A stretch of 19,946 bases of DNA. It comes from a virus (lineage: Duplodnaviria > Heunggongvirae > Uroviricota > Caudoviricetes). The notes under the pieces were generated by a model. The model made no database searches. It had not been told where the DNA came from and saw only the letters and a list, made by a program, of their open reading frames with translations. Numbering within the stretch: position 1 is the first letter of the stretch; every line of letters begins with the position of its first letter. Below, in pieces: positions 1-19,689 of the stretch. Made by a program: the position numbers and the translations under genes. The stretch lies in IMG/VR virus record IMGVR_UViG_2734482599_000001, one strand, 5' to 3'.

Positions 1-3000
1 TTTCCGCTCCCCGGATCGTCATACGCTATACCGTTAAAAATAATGGGCGGAATAATAATCTGGCGGTCAAAGTTATGATCATCGCTTATGGTGACTGTAA
101 CCGTCCCGTTTGGTGTTTCCGTGTTACCCCACGTACCAGCCTGTTTCGGAAATGATTTGGATACAGCTTTAACGAAGTCACCTCTGACCTGAGTCGCCTC
201 CAGCATGCCCTTAATCGTACAGTTTTCATTTACCGTGACATTGTTGAGCGTCCCGGCGTTCGCATTCACACTGCCACTGATATCCGCATTTTTAGCGGTC
301 AGCTTTCCGTCCGGAGTCAGGGAAAATGCCGATGGATTTCCACCGCTGGTAATGGTGGGGGCCGTCAGGCGTTTCAGGAACACGTCGTTCATGAATATCT
401 GATCGCCCTGACCAACAAACATCGGTTTTGTGTTGCCATTCGCAGGATTAACCATCGCAATCCTGTCCGCCGCCAGCAGCACCTGACTCTGCATGCCGTC
501 AGGGGTGTTCTCAATACCGGCACCAATACCCGCGATATAAAGGCGTCCGTCCTGCATCTGCTGCAGCTTCACAGCCCACATGCTGTTCAGGTTATTATTT
601 GTATCAACCTGAACCTTCTGTATCTGCTGAATTGCCGCACTCTGGTCTTCCAGTTTCTTATTGACGGTCTGCGTGATTTCATTGCTGACATCCGTAATGG
701 ACGTCCTGATTTCAGCCAGGTCAGGCGCAAGCTGACCGTTATCAATCTGCGTCCACAGCTCCTGAGCCAGATGGGTTTTCCCTATCTCGCCTTTGAAAAA
801 ATCCAGATAACCGGATGCATCATCACTCGGCTGACCAACAGCCTCCACGAATGCCGATTTGCCAACGGTGTTCACACTGCGGATATAAAAGTAATAATCA
901 TGGCCCGGTTTGATATTGATACTGGCGGCTATCCAGTACAGCGCCGTGCCAAGATAGCGTGCTGTGGTTTCAACCTGCCTGATATCCGCAATCCGCTTTT
1001 CCGAGAACCAGAACTCAAACTGTACCGTCGGATCATAAACCGCAAGATGCGGCGTGGCGGTTATCTGAAAATAGCCCGGCGTCAGCTCAATCCGCGACAG
1101 CGCTGCCGGTGCGGCAATCCGGAACGATACCGACGCCGGATCGCCCTGCTGCCCCCACGCATTTACTGCCCGGACTGTCAGCCTGTAGTTCCCCAGCGCC
1201 AGTTGTGTGAAGCGGTAAGTGGTTTCCGTCGTCCGGGCCGTGCTGACCAGCCGCTCACTGCCGTCATCCGCTGTTACGGTCAGACGGAGCAGGAAGCTCA
1301 CGCCCTTCACCACCTTCGGCGTGTCCCAGCGCGCCAGCACCTGATATTCCCCGCTGTCTGCGGTGACTTCGGCAGTCAGGTGCTGCACCGCTGGCGGCGT
1401 GACACCATTCACCGTGCCGCTCTGGTCGCCGTCAAAGTGCGCCCCGTTATCCACGATGGCTTCTTTTTCCGGCACATGCTGCACGGCGGTGATGGCATAC
1501 GTGCCGTCGTCGTTCTCACGGATACTCACGCAGCGGAACAATCGCTGGTGCAGCGTCGGCAGCTTCAGCCCCCACACGCTGTATTCAGCAACACCGTCAG
1601 GAACACGGCTCACTTTTACCTTCACGCCGTCGGTGACGGACTGGACCTCCACGCTGACCGGATTCCCCTGCCCGTCAACCAGGCTTATCAGCGTGGTGCC
1701 GGAGGATGGCAGCGTGATTTCACGGTCGAGCGTCAGCGTCCGGGTCTGGCTGTTCACCGCCAGCACGCGCCCGCCGGTGCGGATACCGGCATAGTCATCA
1801 TCGCAGATTTCAATGACATCGCCCGGTACATGACGAAGCCCTTCAGCACCCACGCTGAAATCCACGGTCTGCGTCTCCAGCAGTTCCGTTTTAATCAGCC
1901 ACAGCCCGGCGCGGTGTGCCTGCCCCCGGCTGGTACAGCCAAAGGCATCCATCTTCGTGACGTTACGACCGTAACGGACAATGGCCTGCGTATCCTCCAC
2001 AAGCTCTGTCGCCGTCTCCCAGCCGTTATCCGGGTCAATCCAGTTCACCTCAACGGCATTATGGCGGTCTTTCAGGGCGCTGAAACTGTAGCGGAACGGC
2101 GCGCNNNNNNNNNNNNNNNNNNNNNNNNNNNNNNNNNNNNNNNNNNNNNNNNNNNNNNNNNNNNNNNNNNNNNNNNNNNNNNNNNNNNNNNNNNNNNNNN
2201 NNNNNNNNNNNNNNNNNNNNNNNNNNNNNNNNNNNNNNNNNNNNNNNNNNNNNNNNNNNNNNNNNNNNNNNNNNNNNNNNNNNNNNNNNNNNNNNNNNNN
2301 NNNNNNNNNNNNNNNNNNNNNNNNNNNNNNNNNNNNNNNNNNNNNNNNNNNNNNCCCCATGCCATAGCGCGGATGGGTCAGCATATCCCACAGACACCAG
2401 GCCATGTTGTTGCTGTATGCCGGTTTTAACGTTCCGTCCCAGATACCGCTGTATTGCCGCGTCTGCGGATTATAGTTCGACGGCACCTGCAGAATGCGCC
2501 CGCGAAGATGATAATTACGGCTCACCTGCTGGCTGCCGAACTGCTCCGAATCCACCTGTACGCCGACCAGTGCCGTGTTCGGGTAGCACTGTTTCACATC
2601 GATGATTTCGGTGTATGACGACCAGAGCGTTTTGTTCTGCAGCTGGTCTGTGGTGCTGTCCGGCGTCATTCTGCGCATCCGGATATTAAACGGGCGCGGC
2701 GGCAGGTTATCCACCACCACCGAGGCCAGATACTGCGAGGTGGTTTTGCCCTTAATGGTGATGTCTTTTTCCGTCACCCAGCCACCGTTACGCTGTATCT
2801 GAACCAGCAGGCGAACTTCAGACGGATTCCTGTCTCCCTTTGAGGTGGTTTCCACCAGTGCCTGTACACCGAAGGTAAAACGCAGTCGGTCAATGTTTGC
2901 CGACGTGATGGTCCGGGTGATCGGCGTGTCATATTTCACTTCCGTACCCAGCACCGTCTCGGAGCCGGAGGATTCAAATCCCTCCGGCGGTGACTGCTCC

Positions 3001-4534: not shown

Positions 4535-4839
4535 NNNNNNNNNNNNNNNNNNNNNNNNNNNNNNNNNNNNNNNNNNNNNNNNNNNNNNNNNNNNNNNNNN
4601 NNNNNNNNNNNNNNNNNNNNNNNNNNNNNNNNNNNNNNNNNNNNNNNNNNNNNNNNNNNNNNNNNNNNNNNNNNNNNNNNNNNNNNNNNNNNNNNNNNNN
4701 NNNNNNNNNNNNNNNNNNNNNNNNNNNNNNNNNNNNNNNNNNNNNNNNNNNNNNNNNNNNNNNNNNNNNNNNNNNNNNNNNNNNNNNNNNNNNNNNNNNN
4801 NNNNNNNNNNNNNNNNNNNNNNNNNNNNNNNNNNNNNNN
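4535..4839. other. Run of 305 N (assembly gap or masked sequence) covering the 3' end of L and part of the L-K intergenic region
   Basis: Literal n characters in the sequence. Confidence 1.
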
Positions 4840-5690: not shown

Positions 5691-8248
5691 CGTCCACCTC
5701 CGGAGAACAGGCCACCATCACGCATCTGTGTCTGAATTTCATCACGGGCACCCTTGCGGGCCATGTCATACACGGCCTTCATCATCTGTGGACCTGGCAG
5801 ACCATTCGTACCGTCGTTCTGAATCACCACGTGATTGTTCTGATTAAAATTAATGCCTTCAGCCCGCCGCATCTGCGCCGGACTTCCGGCACCGCCCACA
5901 TAACCACCTTCCGCATAGCCGCGCATCAGCCGGTAGAGATTCCCCACGCCAATCCGGCTGGTTGCCTCCTTCGTGAAGACAAATTCACCACGGTGAACAA
6001 TCCCCGCTGGCTCATATTTGCCGCCGGTTCCCGTAAATCCCCCGGTTGCAAAATGGAATTTCACCGCAGCGGCCTGAATGGCTGTACCACCTGACGCGGA
6101 TGCGCCGCCACCAACAGCCCCGCCAATGGCGCTGCCGATACTCCCGACAATCCCCACCATTGCCTGCTTAAGCAGAATTTCTGTCATCATGGACAGCACG
6201 GAGCGGGTGAAGCTGCGCCAGTTCTGTTCACTGCCGGTCAGCATCGCCGCCATATTCTGTGCAATACCATCAAAGGTCTGCGTGGCTGCACTTTTAACCT
6301 GTGACATACTGTCCGTGGCGCTCTCTTCCCACTCACTCCAGCCGGACTTCAGGCCTGCCATCCAGCTCCCGCGAAGCTGGTCTTCAGCCGCCCAGGTCTT
6401 TTTCTGCTCTGACATGACGTTATTCAGCGCCAGAGGATTATCGCCATACTGTTCCTTCAGGCGCTGTTCCGTGGCTTCCCGCGCTGCCTGCCGGTCAGTC
6501 AGCCCCCGGTTTTTCGCATCAATGGCTGCCCGTTTTGCCCGTTGCTGCTGTGCGAATTTATCCGCCTGCTGCGCCAGCGCATTCAGGTGCTCCTGATACG
6601 TAACCTTGTCACCAAGTGCAGCCAGCTGGCGTTTGTACTCCAGCGTCTCGTCTTTATGCGCCAGCAGGGATTTCTCCTGTGCGGACAGCTGGCGACGTTG
6701 TGCCGCCTCCTCCAGTACCGCGAACTGACTTTCTGCCTTCCACAAATCCCGGCGCTGCTGGCTGATTTTCTCATTCGCTCCGGCATGCTTCTCCAGCGTC
6801 CGGAGTTCTGCCTGAAGCGTCAGCAGGGCCGCATGAGCACTGTCTTCCTGACGATCGCCCGCATACACCTTCACGCCGGACTGTTTCGGCTTTTTCAGCG
6901 TCGCTTCATAATCCTTTTTCGCCGCCGCCATCAGCGTGTTGTAATCTGCCTGCAGGATTTTTCCGTCTTTCAGTGCCTTGTTCAGTTCTTCCTGACGGGC
7001 GGTATATTTCTCCAGCGGCGTCTGCAGCCGTTCGTAAGCCTTCTGCGCCTCTTCGGTATATTTCAGCCGTGACGCTTCGGTATCGCTCTGCTGCTGCGCA
7101 TTTTTGTCCTGTTGACGCTGTTGATCTACCCTCTTTTGGGCTGCATCCCGCTCCAGGCGTTTTTTTTCACGATCATCCCAGTAACGCGCCCGTGCTTCAT
7201 CGTTAACGAAATAATCATCCTTGCGCAGATTCCAGATGTCGTCTGCTTTCTTAAACGCAGCCTCTGCCTTAATCAGCATCTCCTGCGCGGTATCAGGACG
7301 ACCAATATCCAGCACCGCATCCCACATGGATTTGAATGCACGTGCAGTCCTGTCTGCCCAGGTCTCCAGCGTGCCCATGTTCTCTTTCAGGCGGCGGGTC
7401 TGGTCATCAAACCCTTTCGTTGCGGCCTCGTTCGCCGCCTGCAATGCCCCGGCTTCATCGCCGGAACGCTGCAACTGAGCAACATACGCAATCTGCTCCG
7501 CCGTCACGTTATGGAACTGGCGTGCCATCGCCGTCAGCCCCGACGTCGGGTCTGTGGTCAGCTTCCCGAAGGCTTCAGCGACCTTGTCCACCTCCACGCC
7601 GGATGCATAGGAGAAACGCGCCACACTCTGGCTGATGGACGCAATCTGAGCCTCACCGCTTACCCCCGCCTTAACCAGTGCGCTGAGTGACTCGCTGGTC
7701 TGGTTAAACGTCAGCCCTGCCGCCTGCCCGGCTCTGGACAGGACCAGCATACGATCTGCCGTCAGTCCCGCCTGATTACCGGAAAGGACCAGCGTTTTGT
7801 TGAAATCGGACAGGGTTGAGTTGCCCTGATACCAGGCATACGCCAGCGCACCGGTCGCCACCGCCAGCGAGGTGGCCCCCACCATCGGCAGGGTGATCGC
7901 GCCGGCAAGCCCCCTGAACATGGGGATCATCCCGCCGAAGGAGTCCTTAACCTGACCACCCTGTTGCAGCAGGATCAGCCAGGGATTCTGCCCCCCTGCA
8001 AGCTGCGTGGCCACGTCGGTGAACTGTGCAGGCAGCATACGCATGGCGGCTTTATACTGCCCGACGGAAATCCCCGCTTTCTGTGCAGCCAGCGCCTGTC
8101 GGCTCAGCGACTGTTCAACGACTGCCGCTGTTTTTTTCGCATCACTTTCCGTACCGGAAAAATGACGCCTGACTCTGGCCATCTGCTCGTCAAATCTGGC
8201 CGCATCCAGACTCAAATCAACGACCAGATCGCCTACCGGTTCAGCCAT
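5687..8248 (-). CDS. H: Tail tape measure protein gpH
   Basis: 853-aa ORF (same length as lambda gpH) with the coiled-coil, Ala/Gln/Lys-rich middle and Gly-rich C-terminus typical of tape measure proteins; start MAEPVGDLVVDLSLDAARFDEQ overlaps the T stop as in lambda. Confidence 0.96.
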   Translation of the reverse strand: MAEPVGDLVVDLSLDAARFDEQMARVRRHFSGTESDAKKTAAVVEQSLSRQALAAQKAGISVGQYKAAMRMLPAQFTDVATQLAGGQNPWLILLQQGGQVKDSFGGMIPMFRGLAGAITLPMVGATSLAVATGALAYAWYQGNSTLSDFNKTLVLSGNQAGLTADRMLVLSRAGQAAGLTFNQTSESLSALVKAGVSGEAQIASISQSVARFSYASGVEVDKVAEAFGKLTTDPTSGLTAMARQFHNVTAEQIAYVAQLQRSGDEAGALQAANEAATKGFDDQTRRLKENMGTLETWADRTARAFKSMWDAVLDIGRPDTAQEMLIKAEAAFKKADDIWNLRKDDYFVNDEARARYWDDREKKRLERDAAQKRVDQQRQQDKNAQQQSDTEASRLKYTEEAQKAYERLQTPLEKYTARQEELNKALKDGKILQADYNTLMAAAKKDYEATLKKPKQSGVKVYAGDRQEDSAHAALLTLQAELRTLEKHAGANEKISQQRRDLWKAESQFAVLEEAAQRRQLSAQEKSLLAHKDETLEYKRQLAALGDKVTYQEHLNALAQQADKFAQQQRAKRAAIDAKNRGLTDRQAAREATEQRLKEQYGDNPLALNNVMSEQKKTWAAEDQLRGSWMAGLKSGWSEWEESATDSMSQVKSAATQTFDGIAQNMAAMLTGSEQNWRSFTRSVLSMMTEILLKQAMVGIVGSIGSAIGGAVGGGASASGGTAIQAAAVKFHFATGGFTGTGGKYEPAGIVHRGEFVFTKEATSRIGVGNLYRLMRGYAEGGYVGGAGSPAQMRRAEGINFNQNNHVVIQNDGTNGLPGPQMMKAVYDMARKGARDEIQTQMRDGGLFSGGGR

Positions 8249-14372: not shown

Positions 14373-18053
<3,681 letters not shown>

Positions 18054-18079
<26 letters not shown>

Positions 18080-18599
18080 TCAGCAACCCCGGTATCAGTT
18101 CATCCAGCGCGGCTGCTTTGTTCATGGCTTTGATGATATCCCGTTTCAGGAAATCAACATGTCGGTTTTCCAGTTCCGGAAAACGCCGCTGCACCGACAG
18201 GGGGATCCCGTCGAGAATACTGGCAATTTCACCTGCGATCCGCGACAGCACGAAAGTACAGAATGCGGTTTCCACCACTTCAGCGGAGTCTCTGGCATTT
18301 TTCAGCTCCTGTGCGTCGGCCTGCGCACGCGTAAGTCGATGGCGTTCGTACTCAATAGTCCCTGGCTGGAGATCTGTCTCGCTGGCCTGCCGCAGTTCTT
18401 CAACTTCCCGGCGCAGCTTTTCGTTCTCAATTTCAGCATCCCTTTCGGCATACCATCTTATAACGGCGGCAGAGTCATAAAGCACCTCATTACCCTTGCC
18501 ACCGCCTCGCAGAACGGGCATTCCCTGTTCCTGCCAGTTCTGAATGGTACGGATACTCGCACCGAAAATGTCAGCCAGCTGCTTTTTGTTGACTTCCAT
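18054..18599 (-). CDS. Nu1: Terminase small subunit gpNu1 (winged-HTH cosB-binding)
   Basis: 181-aa ORF MEVNKKQLADIFGASIRTIQNWQEQGMPVLRGGGKGNEVLYDSAAV..., lambda gpNu1 length and sequence; 26-nt overlap with A as in lambda; RBS GGAATGAACA upstream on the coding strand. Confidence 0.97.
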
Positions 18600-18776
18600 T
18601 GTTCATTCCACGGACAAAAACAGAGAAAGGAAACGACAGAGGCCAAAAAGCCCGTTTTCAGCACCTGTCGTTTCCTTTCTTTTCAGGGGGTGTTTTAAAT
18701 AAAAACATTAGGTTACGGCGAAGAAGAACGGAAACGCCTTAAACCGGAAAATTGTCATAAATAGCGAAAACCCGCG
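18600..18776 (-). promoter_or_regulatory. cosB: cosB: terminase (gpNu1) binding region with R1, R2, R3 elements and an intervening IHF-site region
   Basis: Three copies of the Nu1 R-element core (GGAAACG-containing ~16-mers): R1 about 18623-18638 (agaaaggaaacgacag), R2 about 18665-18680 (ctgtcgtttcctttct, inverted), R3 about 18722-18738 (gaagaagaacggaaacg). Positions and orientations match the lambda cosB layout between cosN and the Nu1 start. Confidence 0.85.
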
Positions 18777-18788
18777 CGCCTTCCGCCC
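18777..18788 (-). promoter_or_regulatory. cosN: cosN: terminase nicking site / 12-nt cohesive end (in phage orientation 5'-GGGCGGAAGGCG-3')
   Basis: Flanks align base-for-base with lambda (CGACAGGTTACG on the cosQ side, CGCGGGTTTTCGCTAT on the cosB side), which fixes the 12-nt segment. It reads GGGCGGAAGGCG here against GGGCGGCGACCT in lambda as I recall it. Confidence 0.8.
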
Positions 18789-18830
18789 CGTAACCTGTCG
18801 GATCGCCGGAAAGGACCCGCAAAATGATAA
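18789..18830 (-). promoter_or_regulatory. cosQ: cosQ-containing right-end segment (packaging termination signal region)
   Basis: Reverse complement ...GGGTCCTTTCCGGCGATCCGACAGGTTACG matches the terminal ~30 nt of the lambda right end with 2 substitutions. Exact cosQ limits are given from memory (about window 18812-18818) and are approximate. Confidence 0.55.
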
Positions 18831-18987
18831 TAATTATCATCTACATGTCACAACGTGCATCTACGCCATCAAACCACGTCAAATAATCAATTATGACGCA
18901 GGTATCGTATTAATTGATCTGCATCAACTTAACGTAAAAACAACTTCAGACAATACAAATCAGCGACACTGAATACAGGGCAACCTC

Positions 18988-19221
18988 ATGTCAACGAAGA
19001 ACAGAACCCGCAGAACAACAACCCGCAACATCCGCTTTCCTAACCAAATGATTGAACAAATTAACATCGCTCTTGTTCAAAAAGGGTCCGGGAATTTCTC
19101 AGCCTGGGTCATTGAAGCCTGCCGCCGGAGACTGTGCTCAGAAAAAAGAGTTTCGCCTGAAGCAAACAAAGAAAAGAGTGACATTACTGAATTGCTCAGA
19201 AAACAGGTTAGACCAGATTGA
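18988..19221 (+). CDS. Small ribbon-helix-helix-like DNA-binding protein, YlcI/DUF3950-like prophage right-end protein (77 aa)
   Basis: ATG at 18988 preceded by AGGG about 7 nt upstream. The product MSTKNRTRRTTTRNIRFPNQMIEQINIALVQKGSGNFSAWVIEACRRRL has a basic N-terminus, a beta-strand (NIRFP), helix A, and a G-x-S/N-x-S-x-W-hI-helix B pattern typical of RHH (Arc/CopG/MetJ) folds. The first ~50 codons correspond to the unannotated small ORF at the lambda right end and to E. coli prophage ylcI-type genes, from memory; the C-terminal 25 aa differ. Confidence 0.6.
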   Translation: MSTKNRTRRTTTRNIRFPNQMIEQINIALVQKGSGNFSAWVIEACRRRLCSEKRVSPEANKEKSDITELLRKQVRPD

Positions 19222-19278
19222 AGCAATTTAGATAATCGTGCAGACTACGCCCCCTCATATCACATGGAAGGTACTACA

Positions 19279-19689
19279 ATGGCTCAGGTTGCCATTTTTA
19301 AACAAATATTCGATAAAGTGCGAAATAATTTAAACTATCACTGGTTTTATTCTGAACTAAAACGTCACAATGTCTCACATTACATTTACTATTTAGCCAC
19401 AGAGAATATTCATCTTGTTCTTGAAAACGATAATACGGTTTTAATAAAAGGACAGGGTAAGGTTGTAAATGTAAGATTTTCAAAAAATAAATGCCTTATA
19501 GAAGCCACCTTAAAAGGATTCAAATCAGGAGAGTTATCATTTTACGAATACAGGAAAAATCTTGCTACAGCAGGGGTTTTCAGATGGATTACAAATATCC
19601 ACGAAAACAAAAGGTATTACTATACCTTTGATAATTCATTACTCTTTACTGAGAACATACAGAACACTACACAAATATTTCCGCACTAA
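19279..19689 (+). CDS. DUF1398 (YbcV/YdfO-like) prophage accessory protein, 136 aa
   Basis: ATG at 19279 with RBS GGAAGG 7 nt upstream; the ORF-track start at 19264 is an in-frame extension. Markedly AT-rich compared with the structural genes. The product [58 protein letters not shown]... resembles what I recall of the YbcV/YdfO DUF1398 family of E. coli cryptic prophages (DLP12, Qin); the family assignment is from memory. Confidence 0.6.

Follow-up and report, generated by a model that had tools for sequence, protein, structure and literature searches.

A recurring five-base variant of the lambda-type cosN right half found in prophages, phage-plasmids and PICI-type cos modules

The window, by which we mean the whole 19,946-nucleotide stretch analysed (IMG/VR record IMGVR_UViG_2734482599_000001), carries a cosN whose left half is that of lambda and whose right half is not, AAGGCG standing in place of the lambda CGACCT. 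This is a recurring natural allele, very probably an ordinary site and not a decayed one, and it is no assembly error. Our comparisons of sequence support, with a probability of roughly 80%, its reading as a functional natural allele of the lambda-type cosN right half that would be cut by an ordinary lambda-type terminase. The variant joins an already described class, that of natural right-half cosN variation, and is its most divergent member documented here.

The cos region of the window

Alignment to lambda (NC_001416, taken as the circularised junction) pairs the cosN of the window with the lambda 12-mer GGGCGGCGACCT, and the 12-mer GGGCGGAAGGCG is present on the minus strand where the initial annotation had placed it (Table 1). 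Six consecutive changed bases had been described there; the changed block does lie in bp 7-12, but five of its six positions differ (7, 8, 9, 10 and 12) and C11 is shared with lambda. The overhang is consequently identical to the end of lambda, 21 and phi80 at 7 of 12 positions and falls outside this canonical type. The lambda-identical flanks, originally put at nine bases on each side, extend over 16 nt upstream (left) and 22 nt downstream (right). Background divergence from lambda in the 238 flanking positions amounts to 6.3%, and at that rate the chance of at least five mismatches in six positions is P = 5.7e-6, or 1.4e-3 when corrected for the 245 possible windows; the cluster of mismatches in cosN is not due to chance. 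The rotational symmetry of the 22-bp site comprises 8 positions in the variant versus 10 in lambda.

Table 1. Features of the cos region and terminase genes in the window, with their positions and their relation to lambda.
Feature	Position in window	Strand	Sequence or product	Remark
cosQ heptamer	18812..18818	-	GGGTCCT	-30 to -24 from top-strand nick; packaging termination signal
cosN, 12-bp cohesive-end sequence	18777-18788	-	GGGCGGAAGGCG	
cosN with the CG pair outside each nick (slashes)	18775..18790	-	CG/GGGCGGAAGGCG/CG	from alignment to lambda
cosN left half, bp 1-6	18783..18788	-	GGGCGG	same as lambda
cosN right half, bp 7-12	18777..18782	-	AAGGCG	variant block (lambda CGACCT)
cosB R3	18724..18739	-	AGGCGTTTCCGTTCTT	identical to lambda bp 50-65
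cosB R2	18665..18680	-	AGAAAGGAAACGACAG (phage strand)	identical to lambda bp 109-124
cosB R1	18624..18639	-	CTGTCGTTTCCTTTCT (phage strand)	identical to lambda bp 151-166
Nu1	18054..18599	-	terminase small subunit, 181 aa	Pfam Phage_Nu1, E = 2e-101
A	16154..18079	-	terminase large subunit, 641 aa, ATPase and endonuclease domains	Pfam GpA_ATPase, GpA_nuclease

Outside the right half, the cos of the window is built as in lambda. Its cosQ, an element whose function has been assigned previously (PMC4669245, PMC9026076), matches lambda 48473-48479 at equal spacing. The stretch between cosN and R3 (coordinates from PMC9026076), where binding of Nu1 anchors terminase for nicking the bottom strand, contains no indel relative to lambda, and the R2-R1 spacer has a 1-nt deletion. 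Both terminase subunits are near-identical to those of lambda, as first noted: Nu1 at 98.3% (K48R, A75T, L132I) and gpA at 99.4% (T151S, D185E, L404R, T466I). A search for a solved structure matching gpA by sequence found none. With cosQ some 30 bp ahead of the top-strand nick, GGGCGG, the CG pairs, R3, R2 and R1, and adjacent Nu1 and A genes, the site has the sequence hallmarks of a lambda-type cos; it shares cosQ, spacing, CG pairs, left half, R sites, Nu1 and A with lambda, 21 and phi80, and differs from them at the five right-half positions.

The remainder of the window forms a head and tail module of lambda type. Its genes W, B, C, D, E, FI, FII, Z, U, V, G, T, H, M, K and I have their full length and are, over their readable sequence, 94-100% identical to lambda, with J extending beyond the window start. 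Two runs of N interrupt the sequence, one of 250 bases within J (2105-2354) and one of 305 bases across the L/K boundary (4535-4839). A 281-residue gpL reading frame and a gap in the J alignment were considered as real changes and rejected, both being products of these runs. The first 288 residues of the tail tip protein J are 98% identical to lambda J, and its central and C-terminal part, residues of about 383-1043 (window 30-2102), only about 81%, so that the receptor-binding part is mosaic. Upstream of cos, the plus strand encodes proteins of the DUF3950 (YlcI/YnfO-type; 18988-19221) and DUF1398 (19264-19689) families in the region that bor, p78 and p79 occupy in lambda; YbcV is listed at the equivalent position in the annotation of phage PhiR70_1.

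A clustered change inside the cleavage site had been called unexpected in the initial annotation, yet both tolerance of mutations and natural variation were already on record for bp 7-12 (PMC4669245). Its statement that lambdoid phages share an end holds for 21 and phi80, which have the lambda end, but not for N15, whose annotated sticky end is GGGCGGCGTCCG; lambdoid ends are thus not uniform. Mutagenesis of lambda cosN has found many bp 7-12 mutations with minimal phenotype and severe effects of the symmetric changes in the left half: G2C lowers yield about 10-fold, and C11G is without effect (Feiss 2015, PMC4669245). Natural variants differ from lambda at bp 9 and 12 (N15 and phiD326) or at bp 8, 9 and 11 (Gifsy-1) and keep the nick CG pairs and cosQ (PMC4669245), and the end inferred for mEp213/LLS, GGGCGGCGCGCT, is changed at bp 9 and 10 (PMC12315714). 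The window fits the class described in PMC4669245, in that its differences within cosN are confined to bp 7-12 and its left half, nick-flanking CG and cosQ are conserved. Like the window, N15, phiD326, Gifsy-1 and mEp213/LLS have all their changes in bp 7-12 and retain the left half and CG pairs. The window differs from them in the number of changes, five being more than in any of the four, and in its terminase, which is lambda-identical in kind, whereas those of the other variants have diverged (N15 gp2 and gp1 are 87% and 55% identical to the proteins of the window). It also differs from the laboratory right-half mutants of lambda, such as the single change C11G, which affect the same half-site with minimal phenotype (PMC4669245), in being a natural five-base haplotype that keeps C11.

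Recurrence and genetic backgrounds of the allele

The possibility of a genuine variant cos, raised at the outset, is supported by exact recurrence. We surveyed 5,426 complete E. coli genomes with a 40-nt query seeding only across the variant block and with a matched lambda-allele query. The variant was found in 158 genomes (about 3%), at 169 places of which 153 are chromosomal and 16 on plasmids; the lambda allele was found in 4,283 genomes, at 8,147 places that include 20 on plasmids. The variant thus makes up about 2% of lambda-family cos sites overall, 1.8% of the chromosomal ones (153/8,280) and 44% of those borne by plasmids (16/36), its plasmid share being about 24-fold above its chromosomal share. 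It had been allowed that the 12-mer would be unremarkable if it proved to be the common cos of a known lambdoid group, and for plasmid-borne lambda-family sites this is largely so, with the one plasmid examined being N15-like.

Recurrence extends to other collections. An IMG/VR scan in which the six positions were left free gave 118 CGACCT, one CGACCG and one AAGGCG among the first 120 matches listed; targeted scans, in which the left-flank constraint was loosened stepwise, found the variant in 14, 29 and then 78 contigs. A further 31 metagenome contigs with the allele came from human gut and food samples. Among species-representative genomes, a strict 29-mer scan gave no match, and a relaxed 22-mer found the variant only in Escherichia sp. 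E1V33. In the phage collection, two of the 74 records with this cos flank have the variant: YDC107_1, classified as Ravinvirus, and PhiR46_1, which the host field of its record (ECOR13) would mark as a plaque-forming phage. Both sequences are deposited in the order of a prophage or plasmid, so that cos lies inside them. The literature searched yielded no paper describing PhiR46_1 or the PhiR phages (PV340536-PV340577), and the 12-mer did not turn up in the full text of any phage paper searched.

For the analysis of genetic backgrounds, 114 copies of the variant allele were fetched. They comprise 20 distinct left-spacer (cosQ-cosN) haplotypes and three types of cosB, namely the lambda R3 type, a 21-like type and the PICI cos-rpp type. 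All 114 have GGGCGG as left half and the CG that precedes the top-strand nick; the CG on the other side formed part of the search patterns, and its conservation is therefore not independent. A scan that left the left half free gave 29 contigs, every one with GGGCGG, which all 11 tabulated alleles have as well. In IMG/VR and metagenome scans anchored right of the nick only, no contig started at G1, and among the 114 copies the smallest distance to a contig end was 50 nt.

The plasmid examined, pEC21Z151-46K (46 kb), is an N15-like phage-plasmid carrying the variant; it encodes protelomerase, RepA and SopAB together with a complete lambda-like virion module and matches PhiR46_1 at 100% identity in the 6 kb that were compared. 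The variant-bearing plasmid records include NZ_CP101200.1 (L159), and among the others listed most have a similar size (45.9-46.9 kb).

The cos sites of E. coli PICIs have a lambda-like cosQ and cosN, cut by the helper TerL, and a different cosB (PMC9026076). The cos of the window is unlike them in having lambda cosB and Nu1 in place of the PICI R3 and Rpp, and in lying within a phage structural module. Three loci in our sample are PICI-type cos-rpp modules with lambda-like cosQ and cosN and an unrelated cosB, and encode a TerS-like protein 35-39% identical to Nu1. One of them (L140, 4086-4803), apparently inserted in a lambda-like capsid gene E, has the right half AAGGCG; the other two (L144 and L153) have the related CAGACG and CTGACG. 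In the chromosome of E. coli APEC E14033 (L158, 26148-38449), the variant cosN belongs to a lambda-like prophage at the ybhC (att-lambda) locus whose major capsid gene E is interrupted by an element of 11 kb with genes for an integrase, a primase, capsid and decoration proteins of its own and a member of the YlcI/YnfO family; this element looks like a satellite or PICI-like insertion.

One alternative to a functional allele is that the cos belongs to a cryptic prophage and has decayed and lost its function, the changes being tolerated only because selection for packaging has gone. The N runs in J and L/K make the window prophage readable only in part, and some variant sites do adjoin damaged modules, one locus (L126) being without most of Nu1 and the APEC E14033 prophage having its gene E split. 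Decay, however, predicts scattered and differing changes, whereas more than 250 sequences share this exact hexamer, on 20 flank haplotypes. In the window itself, nothing has changed in cosQ, in the left half, in either CG pair or in R1-R3, and the structural genes run to full length wherever they are readable. Full-length Nu1 and A genes follow 55 of the 64 variant sites that have at least 2.7 kb of downstream sequence, and the allele is enriched on plasmids, of which the one examined would need virions to spread as a phage-plasmid. We therefore consider decay, also raised in the initial annotation, quite improbable.

Cleavage of the variant site and the terminase

How a lambda-type terminase could accept such a site is suggested by published work on the asymmetry of cosN. 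Cleavage assays confirmed the asymmetry between the half-sites and tied it to the closeness of the right half to cosB; the authors suggested that TerL is anchored to cosB, which would make the bottom-strand nick relatively insensitive to sequence (PMC4669245). The TerL nuclease is not highly sequence specific, and its accuracy depends on TerS-cosB anchoring (PMC9026076). Terminase is also reported, in the title of one paper, to measure its cut at 47 +/- 2 bp from an R site.

At the variant site, Nu1 bound at R3, R2 and R1 of cosB would anchor one gpA endonuclease centre at a fixed distance, and the bottom strand would be nicked between bp 12 and 13 largely whatever bases stand at 7-12. A second gpA would nick the top strand beside the sequence-sensitive left half with its outer CG (CG/GGGCGG), which is unchanged in the window. 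Positioning of the bottom-strand nick by Nu1 at R3 would also explain why bp 7-12 of cosN vary naturally. As R3 and its spacing are unchanged, the nicks are expected at the lambda positions; the altered nicking contemplated in the initial annotation finds nothing in its favour, the cosN-R3 spacing and both nick CG pairs being those of lambda. Strand separation would then leave 12-nt 5' overhangs, GGGCGGAAGGCG on the left end and CGCCTTCCGCCC on the right, which, coming from one duplex, are perfectly complementary, so that the chromosome could cyclise after injection. The variant overhang retains G+C at 10 of 12 positions and its predicted duplex stability is -17.8 kcal/mol, versus -18.2 kcal/mol for lambda. 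We infer that cleavage, packaging and cyclisation all proceed at the variant site, and we extrapolate the tolerance of five simultaneous right-half changes, by analogy, from single mutants and from natural variants with two or three changes.

Altered compatibility of the cohesive ends, also proposed initially, is a reasonable inference. A variant end and a lambda-type end would pair only at positions 1-6 and 11 (7/12). The 2-bp mismatch between N15 and lambda ends reduces yield to about 25%, and on this basis five mismatches should prevent cyclisation. Variant ends would accordingly be unable to anneal with lambda-type ends, and mixed-end chromosomes should not cyclise.

An alternative to cleavage by ordinary terminase is that the variant cosN is co-adapted with a changed nuclease, gpA L404R and T466I retuning the endonuclease for the new right half-site. 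Both substitutions lie within the Pfam GpA_nuclease domain and adjoin acidic residues, D401 (in AGIDSQ) and D465 (in CWDTGG), which we take to be residues of the nuclease centre. The Nu1 and gpA sequences of the two allele classes were compared residue by residue, with counts for the two gpA substitutions based on 20 variant and 34 lambda-type loci. L404R occurs at three of the 20 variant loci and at none of the 34 lambda-type loci, and is restricted to the window haplotype (the window itself, L124 and L132). T466I is enriched with the variant (14/20 versus 9/34; raw Fisher p = 0.004), but T466 is kept at six variant loci and I466 is present at nine lambda-allele loci, and the association weakened from a first sample (10/11 versus 9/34) once more loci were added and stands at p = 0.054 when distinct haplotypes are counted. 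No residue in either Nu1 or gpA segregates with the allele. Identical gpA proteins are found at lambda-allele and variant loci (L048 = L146, L097 = L143), which implies that no terminase change is needed. Codon 466 is about 2.1 kb from cosN, a distance sufficient to explain the association between T466I and the allele as linkage, and we read it in this way. Terminase co-variation as a requirement was rejected, given the weakening association and the identical gpA under both alleles, and co-adaptation appears very improbable.

The last alternative, an assembly or consensus error in the window, carries next to no probability and is excluded for the allele as such: the two N runs do lie in this sequence, but the nearest is 13.9 kb from cos, and the same 12-mer with its flanks is present in more than 250 independent sequences from unrelated projects (158 E. 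coli genomes, 78 IMG/VR contigs, 31 metagenome contigs and two GenBank phage records).

Origin and diversity of right-half alleles

The allele appears to have reached the window haplotype from elsewhere. Over 2,928 positions outside cosN, the window and the closest lambda-allele locus in the sample (L044) show 20 differences, ten of them between -59 and +174 (window about 18615-18847) and only six in the next 2.4 kb; the background outside this patch is otherwise 99.8% identical. A patch of divergence around cos in a near-identical background points to import by recombination, a better fit to these sequences than five bases mutated de novo.

The right half is nearly bi-allelic in the E. coli sample, with a nucleotide diversity of 0.017 that is about equal to that of the constrained cosQ-cosN spacer, a comparison confounded by mixed cosB modules and non-independent prophages and thus to be read with this caveat and not as a neutrality test. 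The near bi-allelic state does not look like free neutral drift, and the published statement that selection does not act to maintain bp 7-12 may be too simple. A more speculative model, unlikely as a whole, would make AAGGCG one of two discrete cohesive-end classes kept in Escherichia lambda-like elements by the isolation of its ends from those of the majority class, with a short recombination patch moving it between prophages, N15-like phage-plasmids and PICI satellites, and with L404R and T466I possibly fine-tuning cleavage. Hints of such a maintained second class come from the near bi-allelic variation, the roughly 24-fold higher share on plasmids and the patch from -59 to +174.

The allele is of note mainly because it is common to prophages, phage-plasmids and PICI-type cos modules, and it would not overturn current understanding. 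Annotators should not take a non-lambda 12-mer at cosN for a sign of a dead prophage or of a sequencing error, and cos finders that rely on the exact string GGGCGGCGACCT will overlook about 2% of the lambda-family sites in Escherichia and close to half of those on plasmids. The allele also constitutes a natural five-base test of the claim that bp 7-12 are read weakly and that the nick is positioned from cosB. Two end classes that probably do not cross-anneal, distributed over prophages, phage-plasmids and satellites, could matter for the fate of mixed-end chromosomes, for cosmid and packaging work and for tracing recombination around cos.

Right halves other than those of lambda and the window, all preceded by the GGGCGG left half, include AGACCT (PhiR70_1), CGACCG, AAGGCT and AAGCGT, together with CAGACG and CTGACG at the PICI-type loci, CGTCCG in N15 and CGCGCT in mEp213/LLS. 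The cosN of PhiR70_1 (PV340577; 3025-3036) reads GGGCGGAGACCT, with one change, at bp 7, and is accompanied by lambda-like Nu1 and A. The window haplotype has a C at cosN +35 (ATGACAATT), which is also present at six other loci (L089, L121, L124, L127, L129 and L132).
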